NCBI GenBank assembly: GCA_043228905.1
Contig: JBHGNT010000016.1
Span: forward strand, 18,476,001 to 18,540,000
DNA: 64,000 bases
Origin: Azolla caroliniana
Lineage: Eukaryota; Plantae; Polypodiophyta
Direction of reading: 5' to 3'
Program-made: the position numbers and the translations under genes
In this document: one piece after another, positions 2,681 through 42,378 of the stretch
Layout of the letters: every line of letters starts with the position of its first letter
Numbering within the stretch: the stretch's first letter is position 1
The notes under the pieces: generated by a model
Told to the model about the DNA's origin: nothing
What the model saw: only the letters and a program-made list of their open reading frames with translations
Database searches by the model: none

Positions 2681-4781
2681 CGAAATGTTGATGCACAATT
2701 TTATGAGCTACAGTGACTAAAAGAAAAATTCGTTGCATTGGAACAAGAAAGCCAACGATTGTTAGGGGATCTTCAACAAATTGCTTTAGAAAAACAGCAA
2801 ACGCAGCAACAACATGGGGAGTTAGCGTTACAAGTACAACAACTCGAAGAAACCATCGTACCATTACAACAACAAGGATCAAGTCCCCAAGGACTTCATA
2901 AAGAGCCCAAGATTGGTCTTCCTGTGAAATTTGATCGAAAGCACTCACAATTCAGAGGATTCCTTAATCAAGTACGCTTAGTCATGCAAATGCATCCTTC
3001 CCGATACCCCCACTGATGCATCCCGAGTAGGCCTAATAGGCACGTTGCTCAGCGGCTCAGCCTTGGGATGGTTCACTCCGCTTTTGAAAAAACAATCTCC
3101 CTTGCTTAATACCTTTGAAGACTTTATTAGCGAGTTTAAAGCCTGCTTTGGAGATACCGATAGCATGAGGACAACGATCAATAAAATCCGTCGATTGCGT
3201 CAAGGCGATCGTCCAGCCTCTGCCTACGCGGTGGATTTCCATCTACTCGCCTCAGATATCCCCTGGGATGATCAAGCACTAATGGAGCAGTTCCGCTATG
3301 GCCTGCGAAACGACATCAATGATTTATTTTTAACCTTTACCGAAGAACCAAAATCTCTTACAGAGACAATCAGTCGAGCGGTCCAATGCGACAACCGCCT
3401 TTTCGAACGACGTTCGGAATGTCAATTTCAAATGCCACAGACTAGGCCACAACCCACATATGCCTCAATCGCAGCTAAACCAGTTGCACGAGATGTATCT
3501 CAGGCAAATACTCCAATGCCGATGGAGATCGACACCATGCGTCAACGTGGCCCGTTATCAGAAGAAGAAAAGCAACGACGACATGCAAATCGATTATGTC
3601 TTTATTGTGGTGGACCAGGGCATATCGCCATCGACTGTCCCCATAGGCCAAGAAGACAGGTAAATCAAATCGTAGCCTATACTAAACCCGAGACAATTCC
3701 CTTAGGTGTGTCTGATAGTATTAATAGTACTGATAGCCCAAGTATCTCAAACAAATTTCAATCCTTAGTCAATTAGAGGAAGAGTTAAAAGACTAAGTCT
3801 AGCCAAAATAGGAGCCGTTTGGTTGGACATCCCTAGATCTGTGCAACCCATTAGTGGTTCCATTCCCTCTAAGCAAGTTAGCAATGTGTTCTTAGCCCAA
3901 GTCACAATTAGTACTAAAAGTACCCCTCCAGTACATGTCTTAGCACTTTTAGATTCCGGAGCCGATTCATGTTTCATGGATCGGAATTTTGCCCAAGCGT
4001 CTCAGATATCCTTAAGAAAACTTCCTTGCCCCGCATCTGTAGTAGTCATTGATGGTCGTCCCATTGCTTTTGGGAATATTGTAGAAGAGTCAGAACCCAT
4101 TCAGGTTGTCCTAGATAGCTTTGTGTATGTGGTATCATTTAATATAATTAGTGGTCTAGAGCATCCCATTCTCCTGGGATTACCTTGGTTTGAAGTACAT
4201 AATCCAAACATAGATTGGAGAACAAGAGAAGTCCGATATCAACAACCCTGAGAATCTACTCATCGACTTTCGACCATTTCGCTCCATCAATTACGCGAAG
4301 AAGGATGCAAGGAGTCAATGTTTCTATTTGCAATATCAGTACATCCTTCTAGCACCATTAAAAAGGAATCCTTAGTTCAACTTCCCGCAAAATATCATCC
4401 TTATGCCGATGTATTTGACAAGGTCAGAGCTACTACTCTTCCTCATCATCGTCCCTATGATTGTCCCATCGATCTACAACTAGGAACAGAGCCACCATGG
4501 GGACCGATTTACAACTTGTCACCGACCGAGTTGGATGTCCTTTGAGCCTACATGGAAGAGACTTTGGCAAGCGGGTTTATTCGTCATTCGAAATCTCCGG
4601 CAAGTGCACCCATTTTCTTTGTAAAAAAGAATGATGGATCCCTTCATCTCGTCGTTGATTACCGCGGCTTGAATAAGGTCACCATTCAGAATAGGTATGC
4701 ACTTCCCCTTATATCAAGTCTATTAGAACGTGTAAATGGTGCCAAGTTTTTTACAAAAATCGACTTACGAGGAGCATATAA

Positions 4782-5203: not shown

Positions 5204-5947
5204 TGTTAGGAAACAGGTCCCTCCAGATGAGAAGTGAAAAGAATAGTGATGATGAGCAAACTCGGCCTCGGCCGAATCCGGATGTGGAGTACCCCGGCAA
5301 CGGAAGACCCGGTGAGAACCGGATGTGGAGGACCTGGCAACGGAAGACCCGGTGAGAACCAGATGTGGAGTACCCGGAAATGGAAGACTCGGTGAGAACC
5401 GGATGTGGAGTACCCGGCAACGGAAGACCCGGTGAGAACCGGATGATGTGTGCTCGACAAGCGCCGGATGATGCAGGCCCTGTGGGGAGTGCTCACCGGA
5501 TGAAGGGACATATTCGTAAATATGTTTCTGAGAGTCCATCGGGGCTATATTTGTAAATAGCTGAAAAGCCATATTAGTATAAATATGACTTAGGGCAAAC
5601 TTAGTCATAGTAGTGGTCATTTCTTGTTGGTGCAAGATTTGCGAGCGTAACTGTGTACAGAGAGAGAGAGAGAGGAAGAGGTCGTTGCCTCTGTTGTAAC
5701 CGCCGCTTGTAGCGAAGATAGAAAGCTCAAGGTTGTTGCCTCGGTGCTTTACTGTTGTACATTGTAACATAGTGATAGTTTGCAGCCTGTGGGCTGCCGT
5801 AGTTTTTTCCCTAGTTTGGGTTTTCCACGTAAACATCCTGTGTACTCTTCTCTTCACTGTGTCGTGCGTTCATTATCCATTTTCTGTGTTTGATCCTAGC
5901 CTCGGTTGTGGCCGAGCGTTGTGCTTAGGGAGCGTGTGTTCCTGTCA
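5204..5947 (+). mobile_element. Solo LTR (744 bp) inserted in the 5' LTR of C
   Basis: Termini TGTTAGGA...TCCTGTCA, perfect 5-bp TSD AAATC (5199-5203, 5948-5952). Absent from the 3' LTR of C. TATAAA at about 5578. Confidence 0.9.
5278..5446 (+). repeat. Four tandem 40-bp repeats (CCGGATGTGGAGTACCCGGCAACGGAAGACCCGGTGAGAA) in the U3 of the solo LTR
   Basis: Units start at 5278, 5319, 5359 and 5399, plus a partial unit. Confidence 0.9.
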
Positions 5948-35800: not shown

Positions 35801-36224
35801 GCAGTGTTGGCGCTTCTCCTGCTGCCTTCTTTTCCGCTTGGCCCTCGGTTGATTCAATGTATCCGAATCAAACATCCGGACCGACTCGGCTACCTCCGAA
35901 CGGTTTTCGCTCTCGTCCGAGTTGGTTGTCTCCAACTCGTCTTCGGTTTTCTCGCCCTTGACGGCGTCATCTCCCCCATGCTTGGTTGGCTACGGCTCTT
36001 TCTTTCGCTTGGGTGGCTCTGTCGAATACAAATGTATAATGGAAGTATTCACACTATCCTCTTAGAGAGCCCAAGTTCGGGCTATTTCTGTAAATAACAT
36101 AAAGGGCAGTTGCCCTAAGTGAGTCACTATATCAAGTGACTTTGTAACCTTTTGTAAAGGTTGGTTGCTTGTTGTTGTAACTATTGCCCTTTTATGAATA
36201 TAGATATATGCTTTGTGTGTGTGT

Positions 36225-36284
<60 letters not shown>

Positions 36285-36776
36285 TGCTGCCGCCGTCGTC
36301 TGCAGCCGCGTCGCCTGCTGTCGCCGCCGTCTGCTGCTGCCGACGACGCCGCCTGTTGTCGCTGCTGCTGCTGACGCCGCCGTCGCCTGCTGCCGTCGTC
36401 GCCGTCGTCTACCGACTGTCGCCGCCGTCTGCTGCCGCCGTCTCCGTCGTCTGTCGACAGTCGTCGTCGTCTGCTGCCGCCGTCTGCTCTGCCGTCTGCC
36501 GACTGTCGTCGTCGCCGTCACCGTTGCCATCTTCTTTCGTCTACCGTCGTTCTTGGGCGTGTTGTTTGCCGATTGTCGCTGTCCTCGATTCTTGGCCGCT
36601 TTTATCGTGTGTAGCCGTTGCCCTTCATCGTGGTACTTCACTTACCGGACGACGTCACCGGCTGAAACAAGCATACATGTGCTTCTACACTCATATCTAG
36701 CGCGAAAGACGTCGATGCTCGGCTAAGTTTTTTCTGTCCTTTTGTCTTTTTCTTTCTTTATCTTTTGAATTACAAG

Positions 36777-37568
36777 ATGACTTCTCGACGAAACCATAAG
36801 GAAACAAACGAAGAAATTATAAGTAAGGAAGATTTTTTAGATGTCCTTAACCGGTTCGTTAAAATGGAAAAATGGGTGAAAGAAATTGAAGCTGAAAAAC
36901 AAAAAGATAAGGAAGAAAGAGAATTGCTTATTGCTGAAGTAGCGAAACTTAAGGTAGATAACGTAAACCTTCAAAAACGAATTAAGGACCTTGAAACATC
37001 TAGGGAAGATGGTGAAATATCTTCTCTAGAGGATATTAAGGACGAGATAAAAAAAGTTAAAGAAGAGGTTAAAAGTGATATGGAACTAGCAAAAACTGGG
37101 TGGGTTGATGTAGTAAAACGTAATATTATAAAAGAACTAAAGGACGAAAATATTGTAAACACTACCCTCGAGGAGGAAAAAATGTGTCAAGCTCGACGCC
37201 TAAATGTACGAGTTACTGGGCTCAAGGAAGGGGCATCTCCCGACGAAGATGCACAAACCTTGGGTAAAATGTTGGGATATGAAGCCCTACCAATCACTAA
37301 AACTTGGAGGGTAGGGCGTGACACCACTAGGAAAAGAGCTTTAGTTCTTCAATTTAAGGACTCGGAATCTAGAATCGCCTTTTTTAAAAAGAGACCAATT
37401 CTTCGAGGATTGGGCGGGGAGCCCATCTACCTCGATGAAGACTTGACCAAGATGCAAATTGAGCATCGTAAAACTTGTATGCCGCGAGTCATACAAGCTC
37501 GTAAAGAGGGGCATCGTGCCTTCTACCGAGACGGACGGGTCATAATAAATGATCGCGCTGCCAATTGA
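36777..37568 (+). CDS. LINE ORF1 (coiled coil plus L1-type RRM/CTD-like region)
   Basis: Heptad-rich N-terminal half, then RRLNVRVTGLKE...LVLQF...IYLDEDLT motifs typical of LINE ORF1 proteins. Confidence 0.85.
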   Translation: MTSRRNHKETNEEIISKEDFLDVLNRFVKMEKWVKEIEAEKQKDKEERELLIAEVAKLKVDNVNLQKRIKDLETSREDGEISSLEDIKDEIKKVKEEVKSDMELAKTGWVDVVKRNIIKELKDENIVNTTLEEEKMCQARRLNVRVTGLKEGASPDEDAQTLGKMLGYEALPITKTWRVGRDTTRKRALVLQFKDSESRIAFFKKRPILRGLGGEPIYLDEDLTKMQIEHRKTCMPRVIQARKEGHRAFYRDGRVIINDRAAN

Positions 37569-37574
37569 CGGCGT

Positions 37575-40500
37575 GTGGCCCATGTGACAAATAATAGACT
37601 TAGGATGAGTTTATGGAATTGTAACGGTGCACTTTGGACACACCCTGGCCGTCTAGAGGAGATTTTGAGGGTATCTGATATACTTTTTTTGGTAGAAACA
37701 CATCAAAGTCCAAATCGAGGATTACCACGAGTTGATGGTTTTCGTTGGGAATCTGTCTTTAGACAAACCTCACGTCGACACACTACTAGAGGGTCTGGAG
37801 GGGTTGCGATATTATTTCGGAGAGAGATACATAGTAGGATAGAAATACTAAAGAAAGACCCAGAAGCCTGTTTTATGTGGGTGAAAGTACTCACTAGCAA
37901 AGATCAGGTGATATTTATTGCCATTTGTTACTTCCCCCCGAAAGGATCTCGGTATAATATGGCTGGAGTGGCGAGTATAGTTGATGAAGGAACGCCACAT
38001 GGGCCTTCTCCATACGAACCTTTATCGGATGACATAATCCGATATTCTTCTCAAGGGGAAGTCTTCCTTGTAGGAGATTTCAATGCGAGAACCCAATCCC
38101 GCCAATGCACAATATTTCAGATGGATAGAAACCTAGAAATGGTGAATGTCGACCCTTTAGCCTTAGGCATAACACGTACATCAAAAGATCAAGGTGCGGA
38201 CGCCACAAGCTTTGGCCATCATCTGCTTGAACTTGGAAGCCGACACCAGATGATCATATATAATGGCTTAGCCAAGTGGCCGGGCTCGGAAGAGCTCACA
38301 TGTTTCCCACATGGAGGAGGGGAAAGCACAGTTGATTACCTAATAGGACGCCCTGAAGCTACCCACATGGTTAGCTCCTTCCGGGTGGCCCCATGCCCCA
38401 TTGGCGCAGACCATAACTTCCTATACTTTGAGCTAAAATGTGACGCCTCCCACGCCACCAACTCTAGTAAACCAACCCATCGCACTATAATACATTTCAC
38501 GCATGAGCTCGCTGACATCTATTCTCGGCATGTTCAAGCGCATCTCTCCTCTTTTGATTCTTCCTTGCCTTTAGAGCACCTCACTACAGAACTCACACAC
38601 ATCCTCCACTCAGCAGCAACTAGTAGCTTCCCATACACGAAAGACTCCAATCATAGTAGAGTTGGGTCTATGCCACAGAACAAGTGGTATGATGAGGATT
38701 GTAGAGAGTTGTATAGACAACTTAAAGTATCGCGGCTTAGTGGTACTATTTCCTCAGTACAGGCTCGCAAAGAGATGCGCAAGATGACACGTCGTAAAAG
38801 ACGGGCTTGGGAAGCATCTCAATATTGGGAACTCTACCATATGCTCATGAGTAGGGATTGTGCCCTCGCATGGAAGAGGCTACGGGAACCGAGACCACAA
38901 ACACCCATCGAGGATCCCAATATTTGGCACACATATATTGAGAGACTCTACCATGTCCCGAACCAACCACCCATTCCAATGCCCTCCACACCTCGACCTA
39001 CCATGGGGACACTTTTCACGACCTCTAGGGTCACGAAGGTCATCAAAAAATTACAACATAGGAAATCCATGGACCACACAGGATTGTGTGCCGAGCACAT
39101 CATATATGCTCGAGAGTGCCTAGCCCCCCTTCTCGCTCTAATCTTCAACCGCGCCCTCGCCGAGGGTTTTCCACCACAATGGGCCATGAACACAGTGGCC
39201 CCTATACATAAAGGAGGGGACTCAATGGACCCAAATACATATAGGACCGTTATGATAGGTCATACGCTCGCTAAACTATATGGTGCAGTAATGGAAGCGG
39301 AGCTCAGTGATTATATGGAAACATTAAGTCTTCGAGCACCTGAGCAAGCTGGCTTTAGACGAGCCTTCTCCACTATTGACCATATCTTCACACTCAGGTG
39401 CTTAATTGACCAGACAAAGGCTCGTAAGAAGAAACTATATTGTTGCTTTGTGGACTTTCGCAAGGCCTTTGACACGGTTCCTAGGGAAAGGTTGTTTGAT
39501 AGACTTAAGAGCTTGGAGATACCAGATGACATGATCTGGGCCATTTATGCCCTATATGAGCAAGTCTCTGGGTGTGTAAGATGCCCAGGTGGCCTATCCG
39601 ATTGTTTCACTAGCACCATTGGTGTAAAACAGGGTTGCCCCCTATCACCGACTCTTTTTGGGATCTACATTGATGAGATCACTGATTTTATTGCTCGTAA
39701 GGGAGGCAAGGGAGTAGCTATTGGGGAGACGCAAGTTAGTCTCTTACTCTACGCAGACGACATTGTCTTGCTCTCAGAGTCGGAACACGACCTACAAAAG
39801 CATCTTAATGCCCTGGATGACTTTTGTACACAACGAGGACTGGTAGTGAATTTAGCGAAAACTAAAGTCCTTATCTTTCATACATCGTCCCGAGTTAGGA
39901 GTCAATGTCACCTAATCCTCTCTCATAAACCAGTTGAGGTAGTGGGATCGTATGTATACTTGGGAGTCACCTTTAGTGCTCGCTCAGGTAAATTCTTGAT
40001 GACCCAGGCAGCCAAAGATAGGCTAACGAGAGGGTATGCATCCCTCTCACTCTTAGAGAGACAATGCCATCAGGCATACTTTCAAGAGCCACGGACTAAG
40101 GGATGGCTTTTTGACTCATTAGTGACCCCGTCCCTCATGTATGCATCAGTAGTATGGGCTCCAGGTTTACCATCTTTCATGTGGACGCAATTAGAGAGAC
40201 CTTTAGTGACGATGTTATCACGTCAACTCCGAAGCAAATCGACAGTACCACATGACATTATTAGAGCTGAGTTCAGTCTACCCCCGATGTTAGTAGAAGC
40301 ACTCTTTCAAGTGGTAGTTTTTATTCATCGGATACATAGCCAACCACAAGATAGGATATCCCGTCGAGCCTTTGAGGCGTCTCGATCTTTATATGTGTCT
40401 GGCGACACTAGCTCTTGGTATAGCATCGTGGTGAGTTGGCTCCGTGCGAACGGCATAGACATTAATAACCTACCTCCCCTTAAGTACAATCATGGGACTG

Positions 40501-41318
40501 ATCAAACTTTAATCTCTCACGAAGATCGTAATAAAGTGATACGCCAAGAAATATGGCAAATTTACACTCGATACAAATGGATCACCCCACGAGAACCACT
40601 CCCATCTAAAATGGTGTACTATAAGGAAAACTTCTTGCGCTTCTCTATGCTAGGCTTTATTACACGACCAAGATATTTAGATACATTCTTATCAAATGCA
40701 CTAAGGGTGGCCATTGGACAACTTAGGATATCATCTCACCAACTTGAGATTGAGAATGGTCGGGCTAATAGAGTCCCTAGAGAGGAAAGGTTATGTAGGT
40801 TATGCCACATAGAGATAGAGGATGAGTATCACTTCACATGCAAATGCCCAACTTATGCCGAGATACGAGCGGAATACCAAGACATACTAGGACCCTCTCC
40901 CACCCTCTCCAAACTATTAGATACCCCGAATGTAAAGAGACTAGGTAGATATATCTTAGACCTAAAACAACATAGGGAGAATAAATTACAAAGTGCTAAC
41001 GATAACCCTCTTAGTATTCATCACCATGTAACTAGTGTAATTTTTCAGGAACAAGGGGAGACGATGAATGTGGATACACTTACGCCGCTCAGCCTCTCCC
41101 TTGAGGAAGCAGAAATGCAAAGAACAACGAAACGCCCTCGAATGTTGGGCTTCAAAACAAGTCAACGTGGAGTAGACAAGATTAAGAAGATAAGGGAACG
41201 TGAGCTACGTCGACTAGAAGCTATGGTTGGGGTACCTCTTACATGGGGACCACGGGCCACATCCACATCGCAACCCTTTGACCTTCCGCTTCTCTTCGAG
41301 AGACTTGGATGGAAATGA
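37575..41318 (+). CDS. LINE ORF2, intact 1247 aa: APE endonuclease, reverse transcriptase and C-terminal CCHC motif
   Basis: WNCNG, LVETH, GDFNAR, STVDY, ADH (endonuclease); QAGFR, FVDFRKAFD, GVKQGCPLSP, YADD, YLG (RT); RLCRLC..EDEYHF..CP. The start codon is uncertain. Confidence 0.95.
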   Translation: MAHVTNNRLRMSLWNCNGALWTHPGRLEEILRVSDILFLVETHQSPNRGLPRVDGFRWESVFRQTSRRHTTRGSGGVAILFRREIHSRIEILKKDPEACFMWVKVLTSKDQVIFIAICYFPPKGSRYNMAGVASIVDEGTPHGPSPYEPLSDDIIRYSSQGEVFLVGDFNARTQSRQCTIFQMDRNLEMVNVDPLALGITRTSKDQGADATSFGHHLLELGSRHQMIIYNGLAKWPGSEELTCFPHGGGESTVDYLIGRPEATHMVSSFRVAPCPIGADHNFLYFELKCDASHATNSSKPTHRTIIHFTHELADIYSRHVQAHLSSFDSSLPLEHLTTELTHILHSAATSSFPYTKDSNHSRVGSMPQNKWYDEDCRELYRQLKVSRLSGTISSVQARKEMRKMTRRKRRAWEASQYWELYHMLMSRDCALAWKRLREPRPQTPIEDPNIWHTYIERLYHVPNQPPIPMPSTPRPTMGTLFTTSRVTKVIKKLQHRKSMDHTGLCAEHIIYARECLAPLLALIFNRALAEGFPPQWAMNTVAPIHKGGDSMDPNTYRTVMIGHTLAKLYGAVMEAELSDYMETLSLRAPEQAGFRRAFSTIDHIFTLRCLIDQTKARKKKLYCCFVDFRKAFDTVPRERLFDRLKSLEIPDDMIWAIYALYEQVSGCVRCPGGLSDCFTSTIGVKQGCPLSPTLFGIYIDEITDFIARKGGKGVAIGETQVSLLLYADDIVLLSESEHDLQKHLNALDDFCTQRGLVVNLAKTKVLIFHTSSRVRSQCHLILSHKPVEVVGSYVYLGVTFSARSGKFLMTQAAKDRLTRGYASLSLLERQCHQAYFQEPRTKGWLFDSLVTPSLMYASVVWAPGLPSFMWTQLERPLVTMLSRQLRSKSTVPHDIIRAEFSLPPMLVEALFQVVVFIHRIHSQPQDRISRRAFEASRSLYVSGDTSSWYSIVVSWLRANGIDINNLPPLKYNHGTDQTLISHEDRNKVIRQEIWQIYTRYKWITPREPLPSKMVYYKENFLRFSMLGFITRPRYLDTFLSNALRVAIGQLRISSHQLEIENGRANRVPREERLCRLCHIEIEDEYHFTCKCPTYAEIRAEYQDILGPSPTLSKLLDTPNVKRLGRYILDLKQHRENKLQSANDNPLSIHHHVTSVIFQEQGETMNVDTLTPLSLSLEEAEMQRTTKRPRMLGFKTSQRGVDKIKKIRERELRRLEAMVGVPLTWGPRATSTSQPFDLPLLFERLGWK

Positions 41319-41520
41319 AAATAACAATTGTATAACACCATTTTCATTGTAGTAGAACATGTTTCTATATAAAACATGTTTGTTATTTTTTAGAACTATT
41401 TAGCTTAAACTCTATTTTTCATCTTATTTTTATTTTTACTTCGATGAATGGGTAAATATCCCATTTTTGTTGTAAACCATTTGTCTCATGGGCCAATTTT
41501 GGCCTTAGAAGACGTTAATA

Positions 41521-41553
<33 letters not shown>

Positions 41554-42378
41554 CTCTCTCTCTCTCTCTCTCCCTGTACGTATTTTGTTCTTCCCTCTCT
41601 CATACGCAGGTATACCTTCTCACAGATTCATACTGTGTGATCTCTTCCGCACTGATGGCTTTGTTCATTCCCTACATTTGGTATCAGAGCTTGGATGTCC
41701 TTCATCCCGCTGCAGGCCGCCATTCGAATCTTCGGATCACAACATCCTTTTTTTCTGTTTTGTATTTGAAGAAACAGAGAAGAGAGAAGAAGAAAAACGA
41801 GGCTTGCATCTCATCGCATTAGATCATCTTCGCTTGGAGTAAGCCAGCCGGCTGTACTCTGTTCCTCGTGATCGTAACCGCTCGAGGTGAAATCCCCTTG
41901 TGCAACATTGACACGATCGTGCTCCACTCGGTTAAACGACATCCGAACAGGTCACCGAACGCTACTCGCCGCCCGTTGTAACCACTCGGTGCAGATCGGT
42001 CTCAAGACAAAAACCCCAATTCGTGCTTTATCCGGCTGATCGACATTCGGGAGGATCAATTGGATCCGTCTCTCTCGTCGCTGCAGTCACCCGAAGCAGA
42101 ATCGGTCCAGACAATCGGTTTCAATAATCGGTATTTGGCATATATATCCGGAAGCGAACCGGGCTCACTCCGACTCGGCAACATTCGGGGAGACCAATCG
42201 ATTATGTCCCTCAAGTTACCGGATTCAATTCGAGCAAGTTCAACAATACATATATCCAAAACTGAACCGACTCGGGTTCAAATCCGACTAGAACGATATC
42301 GGGTGAGCCGACCGGCTGCACTCCAACAAAGTTCGTAGTCAACTTCGAACCGAGCTTCGTCAACCGAAACCGAATCTG

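Follow-up and report, generated by a model that had tools for sequence, protein, structure and literature searches.

Candidate stop-codon readthrough in a LINE of the fern Azolla caroliniana and predicted pairing of the stop region with the 3' end

In a 64-kb window of the Azolla caroliniana genome (64,000 nucleotides of contig JBHGNT010000016.1; all positions below are those of this window), an intact long interspersed nuclear element (LINE) occupies about 36282-41573 on the plus strand. From its sequence and those of its relatives we consider it likely that its enzyme, encoded by the second open reading frame (ORF2), is made as a 1513-aa fusion with the product of ORF1, by programmed readthrough of a UGA-CGG stop that would be stimulated by a predicted helix with the tail of the same RNA. 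How ORF2 is translated and how the enzyme comes to prefer its own RNA are long-standing questions for LINEs, and the answers tested are variants of reinitiation. A conserved signal for readthrough, linked to the 3' end, would be a second route to ORF2; it predicts a fusion protein of the Gag-Pol kind in a LINE, and it offers a concrete mechanism of cis-preference which can be tested by compensatory mutants. The features on which the argument turns are the following:

36777..37565, plus strand: ORF1, 263 aa, from the ATG at 36777 (reading of the frame; coiled coil in the N-terminal half)
37566..37568, plus strand: in-frame TGA, the predicted readthrough codon (frame and comparison of copies)
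37569..37576, plus strand: 8-nt spacer beginning with CGG, which together with the G at +9 fits the pattern stop-CGx-xxx-xxG of the Virgaviridae (PMC3159437)
37569..41318, plus strand: ORF2, with an apurinic/apyrimidinic-type (APE) endonuclease, a reverse transcriptase (RT) and a C-terminal CCHC motif; 1249 codons from stop to stop
37577..37590, plus strand: 5' arm (+9..+22), predicted partner of 41481-41494 (complementarity and folds)
37605..37607, plus strand: first in-frame ATG of ORF2, codon 13, inside predicted endonuclease strand 1 (residues 10-17); ATC in subfamily B
37996..38005, plus strand: second partner of the 5' arm, a perfect 10-bp match lying in a variable loop of the endonuclease and preserved in the closer families only
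41319..41523, plus strand: 3' untranslated region (UTR), its first 130 nt variable and its last 45 nt strongly conserved
41481..41494, plus strand: distal partner of the 5' arm (complementarity and folds)
41483..41513, plus strand: predicted 3'-terminal stem-loop, exclusive with the long-range helix (folds)

The stop codon, its context and the start of ORF2

Is the stop a property of the element or of one copy? From 36777 to the terminal stop at 41316-41318 the frame is interrupted only by the TGA at 37566-37568, which is followed by CGG; a preliminary description of this DNA had placed ORF1 and ORF2 in one frame across a single UGA-CGG, and its estimate of a fusion of about 1513 aa is borne out (263+1+1249). 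Subfamilies A-D and older copies were found at 88 distinct places, with ORF2 84-95% identical to that of the window, and in the 86 copies that cover the junction the codon is TGA in 82 (77 of them TGA CGG), GGA in two, TAA in one and deleted in one, these and the following family counts being of best-scoring matches and so biased towards well-preserved copies. Both GGA copies are single, one of them without most of ORF1 and the other decayed. TGA recurs in 33 of the 35 covered copies of family E (47% identity), 27 times as TGA CGA, and all 30 covered copies of family G (31% identity in ORF2) read TAG G. Six metagenome contigs (L113, L130, L121, L122, L123 and L149) are likewise in frame across TGA CG(G/A); three relatives, at 25-27% identity, are in frame across TAG G and have no early Met (the TAG lies at L183:1375-1377, L292:1459-1461 and L295:2074-2076). 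No amplified subfamily with a sense codon at the junction turned up among the families compared, and the alignment of copies that had been suggested as a check upholds both TGA-CGG and the frame. Judged from these alignments, the single in-frame stop and its context are conserved down to 31% identity in ORF2, beyond chance. The endonuclease tree, which comprises fetched relatives only, is poorly resolved at depth, and we therefore make no claim as to which stop context is ancestral.

Families like P0006, L149, L130 and L113, sought in the source genome, yielded only families already known, and the viral contigs searched held no relative. A search for longer homologues of ORF1 returned two rearranged Adiantum gene models and no ORF1-ORF2 fusion, which is weak evidence.

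The conservation extends to the nucleotides around the stop. In the land-plant-type junctions other than that of family G, TGA is followed by CGG or CGA in 11 of 11 (CGA in family E and L122), two codons that make up 17-44% of the Arg codons in the same ORFs. Of 12 land-plant-type junctions 11 have a G at position +9, though the third codon encodes V, A, M, P or E, and the distance from the stop to the first endonuclease Trp is 13, 14, 16 or 17 codons. Among known readthrough signals, UGA-CGG is the type II and UAG-G the type III context, and the Virgaviridae conserve stop-CGx-xxx-xxG, an 8-nt spacer preceding the stimulatory stem (PMC3159437). The LINE junctions combine the conserved UGA-CGG context of type II (UGA-CGG/CUA) with an in-frame downstream ORF, family G having the type III context; they do not preserve the A that the viral motif has at -1.

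Where, then, would an independent ORF2 begin? The first ATG of ORF2, noted earlier at 37605, is indeed codon 13, three codons ahead of the Trp of WNCNG, and in a structure model the first endonuclease strand starts three residues ahead of this Met13. This ATG is not a conserved feature: no in-frame ATG precedes the endonuclease Trp in 7 of the 15 in-frame junctions (B, L123, L149, G, L183, L292 and L295), and among these B and G are young, multi-copy families. Subfamily B has ATC in place of the codon-13 ATG in 22 copies, its first Met being at codon 103, and in family G the first Met is at codon 161. At codon 3, A-D and G have GTG, E and L112 have ATG, and L113, L130, L121-123 and L149 have GCG, CCG, GAG or CGC. 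If ORF2 is translated by readthrough, its starts in this LINE clade are probably misannotated. Conservation at synonymous sites is not decisive alone, as the junction window is one among several alike (p ~0.005-0.007 before correction, ~1,400 windows).

Predicted pairing of the junction with the 3' end

The 14 nt that follow the spacer, 37577-37590, can pair at 13 of 14 positions with 41481-41494 in the 3' UTR, some 3.9 kb downstream. In a reverse test, which asked which of 4,141-4,660 windows per element pairs best with that element's own 3' element, the best partner starts exactly at +9 in nine of the ten elements that have both ends. The number of pairs is 13 of 14 in A, B, C, D, L112 and E, 14 in L123 and G, 11 in L120 and 10 in L121; the arm of L122, the sister of L121, pairs 14/14 with the L121 tail. 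This count sets aside sequences whose 3' end or junction is missing (L111, L113, L122, L124, L130, L149, L183, L295, L115, L116, L134 and L137) and repeats (L119 and L131, decayed members of family E, and further copies of A-E and G). Both sides of the helix have changed at pairs 2 (G-C/A-U), 5 (C-G/U-A) and 13 (A-U/C-G/U-G), and most one-sided changes yield G-U, as expected of a plus-strand RNA. The type II signal of viruses has a stem that begins 7-12 nt past the stop and carries compensatory changes; the predicted helix begins at +9 and has three such pairs.

In global folds from the stop to the tail, computed with the stop and +1..+8 kept unpaired, the minimum free energy (MFE) structure holds the whole helix in all three families folded (A, E and G). 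When local structure is allowed, 0-7 of 80-92 control windows bind the tail as well in eight elements. Family G served as an out-of-sample case: its tail was seen first and its arm predicted before the junction was fetched, and 11 of 12 positions match, the twelfth being a G-U pair. In L292 (27% identity), a contig probably of animal origin, +7..+18 has its best partner in its own 3' UTR (5271-5283; -20.4, the next -15.0). A kilobase-range pairing of a stop-proximal element with the 3' end, as between the proximal and distal readthrough elements (PRTE and DRTE) of tombusviruses, is therefore found here by prediction and covariation. On this comparative evidence the helix 37577-37590/41481-41494 is better supported than a local hairpin.

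Several observations adjoin the helix. Family G (L333 and L342, G000 C2 and C14) is very abundant and young, with 2709 first-look candidates for its 3' end, and its arm and tail are nearly identical to those of the distant L123 family. An out-of-frame start-stop pair, ATG TGA, lies inside the arm (37581-37586), and its ATG is kept in A-E and in G (as xAT G), for which the pairing is the simplest explanation. The arm's match to the TCFPH motif, another candidate partner, proved weak.

The preliminary description had proposed a different structure, a local hairpin beginning about 7 nt after the stop, as a virus-like stimulator. Its stems can indeed form, with 14/14 pairs possible, and they are the MFE structure of 37560-37670 (-30 kcal/mol), but this stability is at chance level (z -1.47; 14 of 200 shuffles are equally stable). 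The GTGTG..CCA strand lies at 37573-37582 and not at 37575-37584, the stem begins 4 nt and not about 7 nt past the stop, and the stop codon is part of the GACGGC helix, so that the hairpin covers the stop and the first 8 nt. The hairpin shows no compensatory change, and in four of seven related families 1-3 of its pairs are lost, leaving 11-13 of 14; the covariation that had been sought in it is found instead between +9..+22 and the 3' UTR. Given its chance-level stability, the missing compensatory changes and its overlap with the stop, we reject the local hairpin as stimulator. The earlier proposal of programmed readthrough thus keeps its stop, its frame and its UGA-CG(G/A) context and loses its hairpin. 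In none of the 14 TGA junctions folded does the local structure past the stop stand out (z -1.7 to +1.7). The PRTE is carried by a large stem-loop 3' of its stop; these LINE junctions show no significant or covarying local stem-loop. The type II stem closes locally within ~200 nt; the partners found here lie 3.4-3.9 kb away. L183 has a significant local fold after its TAG (z -4.0).

What might the distal end of the helix do otherwise? The partner 41481-41494 also forms the 5' side of the stem-loop predicted at 41483-41513, just before the (CTTT)n tail, in nine of nine elements folded and in family G; nowhere in the UTR is conservation stronger than in this stem-loop. A 3' stem-loop can serve LINE reverse transcriptases as a recognition site, as in fish L2 elements. 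A distal element engaged in a mutually exclusive local structure, here the predicted hairpin, is likewise part of the PRTE-DRTE system, and by this analogy the long-range helix and the terminal hairpin may constitute a switch. The arm has a second candidate partner at 37996-38005, and this helix ranks first among 84 in the coding region that six close families conserve; the match is kept in seven of seven close families while adjacent residues vary, and no position-homologous partner in the endonuclease loop was found in families E, F and H. Forcing this partner in the global fold costs 20 kcal/mol relative to the tail helix, and it could represent an alternative or decoy state.

Other routes to ORF2 and a possible mechanism

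The most serious alternative, which we nevertheless regard as unlikely, is termination followed by reinitiation at codon 3 (GUG or AUG), at codon 13 or without an AUG, the helix holding the ribosome and a separate ORF2 protein resulting. A-D, L112, E and G have GTG or ATG as their third codon, and reinitiation is the route described for L1 and for SART1, the latter requiring a downstream structure (PMC5972666). Four lineages, however, have a non-start codon there (L113, L130, L121-123 and L149), and U+8 and G+9 are accounted for by the pairing with the tail. Reinitiation requires neither the leakiest stop contexts nor an exact change between type II and type III, and a helix covering the third base of the start codon would seem ill-placed to help initiation. 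Translation of L1 ORF2 is AUG-independent, which speaks for reinitiation in the form without an AUG.

Still less probable, in our estimate, is readthrough caused by the codon context alone, the helix serving circularisation, assembly of the ribonucleoprotein, masking of the 3' hairpin or RNA stability. That the partner belongs to a conserved 3'-terminal hairpin, itself likely functional, would suit such a role, as would the stop context retained in L121 and L120 despite a poor helix; but the helix stands at exactly +9 though the ends of ORF1 and the 13-17 codons from stop to Trp vary, and +9 is the spacing reported for readthrough stimulators (PMC3159437). We give hardly any credence to a stop that is removed or bypassed in the RNA, whether by splicing or editing or through an ORF2 transcript of its own, or that is a nonsense mutation of single copies. 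The latter is rejected by TGA in 82 of 86 copies and by the conservation in families E and G, and the two copies with GGA at the junction, which might speak for it, are single and damaged. In polyA reads from three raw runs of the same species label, which are of low depth, on both strands and from diverged copies, two of the runs have about five reads each across the stop, and among the reads listed none shows a joint or a different letter at 37566-37568. A spliced form does exist elsewhere in the element, a GT..AG joint at 40942-41047 in the 3' part of ORF2 seen in 11 polyA reads over the three runs; these reads probably stem from copies inside host transcripts.

Other observations weigh against readthrough stimulated by the tail, or narrow its reach. 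In two distant relatives ORF2 overlaps ORF1 in another frame, the -1 frame (L163:771-837 and L172:2377-2446), with a Met just ahead of the endonuclease motif, and this overlap is another route to ORF2 in the wider group. Protein databases annotate ORF2 starts at codon 3, and since that codon can be GTG or ATG, reinitiation six bases past the stop would also keep the frame there. With regard to the helix, L121 has its best window elsewhere and L120 is marginal (-15.7 vs -15.5), and a single invariant arm is common to A-D and L112, half of the ten elements, which leaves about five independent lineages. When arms and tails are swapped, the arm of E does as well with the tails of A and H as with its own, and that of F does better with the H tail than with its own, so that the pairing is only partly specific. 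With local structure allowed, the arm window is not the best binder in nine of ten elements, and two of them, L120 and L121, have many equal controls (38/91 and 73/90). The stop context predicted for family G was wrong, with 0 matches to the TGA-CGR pattern, the real context being TAG GGA. Finally, in the closer families 37996-38005 could replace the tail as partner, and this tells against the role in quality control that the mechanism set out below includes.

How would tail-stimulated readthrough work? Most ribosomes would terminate at the UGA and release abundant ORF1 protein, and the helix, sitting at the mRNA entry channel, would cause a minority to insert an amino acid and continue into ORF2, yielding a rare fusion. 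The elongating ribosome would then melt the helix, and the freed tail could refold into the terminal stem-loop, presumably the form bound by the new enzyme for target-primed reverse transcription. Such a cycle would set the ratio of ORF1 protein to enzyme, favour RNAs with an intact 3' end and give the enzyme its own RNA in cis. On a broader proposal, a whole clade of LINEs, ancient and spanning ferns to animals, would produce the fusion in this way, with readthrough switched on by pairing with the 3' end. The tail would alternate between the helix and the hairpin used for reverse transcription, and one RNA switch would tie enzyme translation to cis-preference as well as to full-length RNA. 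We advance this proposal tentatively, at somewhat less than even chances.

The element and its place among known systems

The element has the dispersed copies, 5' truncation and simple-repeat 3' tail of an APE-type non-LTR (long terminal repeat) retrotransposon, its family counting 1658 first-look candidates, and in family G truncation has removed the junction from 12 of 20 copies. Its ends are as follows:

36214..36281, no strand: (TG)n(TC)n microsatellite in the 5' flank (from sequence)
36282..36776, plus strand: probable 5' UTR with a GC-rich (GCC/GTC)n run (from sequence and inference; 5' end approximate)
41524..41573, plus strand: (CTTT)n tail passing into a (TC)n flank (from sequence)

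ORF2 matches PF03372 and PF00078 above the Pfam cut-off, which places the endonuclease N-terminal to the RT, and the structure modelled for the first 294 residues of ORF2 matches that of the human L1 endonuclease, 1VYB (E 6.5e-12); a PDB sequence search gave no match. For the N-terminal half of ORF1 the Pfam matches are to coiled coils, weak and below the cut-off, and its C-terminal half is presumably akin to the RNA recognition motif and C-terminal domain of L1 type. Homologues of ORF1 occur in Adiantum gene models, and the named homologues are from the ferns Pteridium and Adiantum.

(TC)n microsatellites border elements at both ends, in the window (36214-36281 and 41524-41573) and at many other loci, which suggests a target preference, and the microsatellite at 36214-36281 is likely the insertion target here; many 5'-truncated copies, uncounted, start after TC repeats. 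Just 3' of the element (41650-41690 onward) stands TGGTATCAGAGC, which we take to resemble the primer-binding site of an LTR retrotransposon, and such an element may have been, or may adjoin, the insertion site of the LINE. The 5'-truncated copies L073, L102 and L125 start at the junction or within ~60 nt of it, the searches having favoured such copies; pausing of reverse transcription at the helix is a possible cause. L295 has a DIEANPGP motif near the N-terminus of its ORF1 (residues ~55-62), presumably a likeness to 2A/StopGo peptides, and L291-L304, LINE contigs of eukaryotic type within bacterial genome bins, are probably host contamination.

In its ORF1, APE, RT and C-terminal CCHC motif, its short tandem-repeat tail and its length of ~5.2 kb the element resembles the RTE-X (RTEX) clade, a label that we assume as a candidate only; the literature searched gave neither readthrough nor long-range pairing for RTEX. 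More generally, that search, with most subscription papers and Repbase outside its scope, found neither a tested case of readthrough in a LINE nor a retrotransposon whose junction pairs with its tail, and the available parts of PMC5009743, PMC11203168 and PMC10294476 show none either. LINE readthrough itself has already been proposed: for the non-LTR Group 3 of Paramecium tetraurelia the authors suggested it at the ORF1 stop from consensus sequences (PMC5405496). Those elements are likewise APE-RT LINEs with ORF1 and ORF2 in one frame, but they belong to a ciliate clade, and the available part of that paper describes no stimulatory RNA structure. What is new here is the prediction, for a LINE, of readthrough of the viral type with a long-distance 3' stimulator. 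SART1 and mammalian L1 share the bicistronic LINE RNA, and SART1 also requires structure downstream of the junction; they differ in using termination-reinitiation, at a UAAUG overlap and across a 63-nt spacer respectively, to make a separate ORF2 protein (PMC5972666).

The closest parallels are viral. With the type II signals of the Virgaviridae (tobra-, peclu-, furo- and pomoviruses) and alphaviruses the element shares UGA-CGG, stop-CGx-xxx-xxG, the 8-nt spacer and a stem of at least 10 pairs with compensatory changes, whereas the viral stems close within ~100-200 nt and the LINE helix reaches 3.9 kb into the 3' UTR (PMC3159437). In the tombusvirus CIRV (Carnation Italian ringspot virus), a 3.5-kb PRTE-DRTE pairing is needed for readthrough into the RNA-dependent RNA polymerase and is mutually exclusive with a 3' structure, and quality control, cis-preference and the separation of translation from copying have been proposed as its roles (PMC3234231). 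The LINE resembles this system in its polymerase ORF in frame past the stop, its kilobase-range pairing to the 3' end and a distal element with an exclusive local structure, which in the virus is tied to replication. It differs in being a non-LTR retrotransposon, in its UGA-CGR context in most families, and in a helix of 13-14 bp directly from +9, without a supported large local stem-loop, known from prediction and covariation. If our reading is correct, long-distance control of readthrough would extend from plant RNA viruses to mobile elements transcribed in the nucleus.

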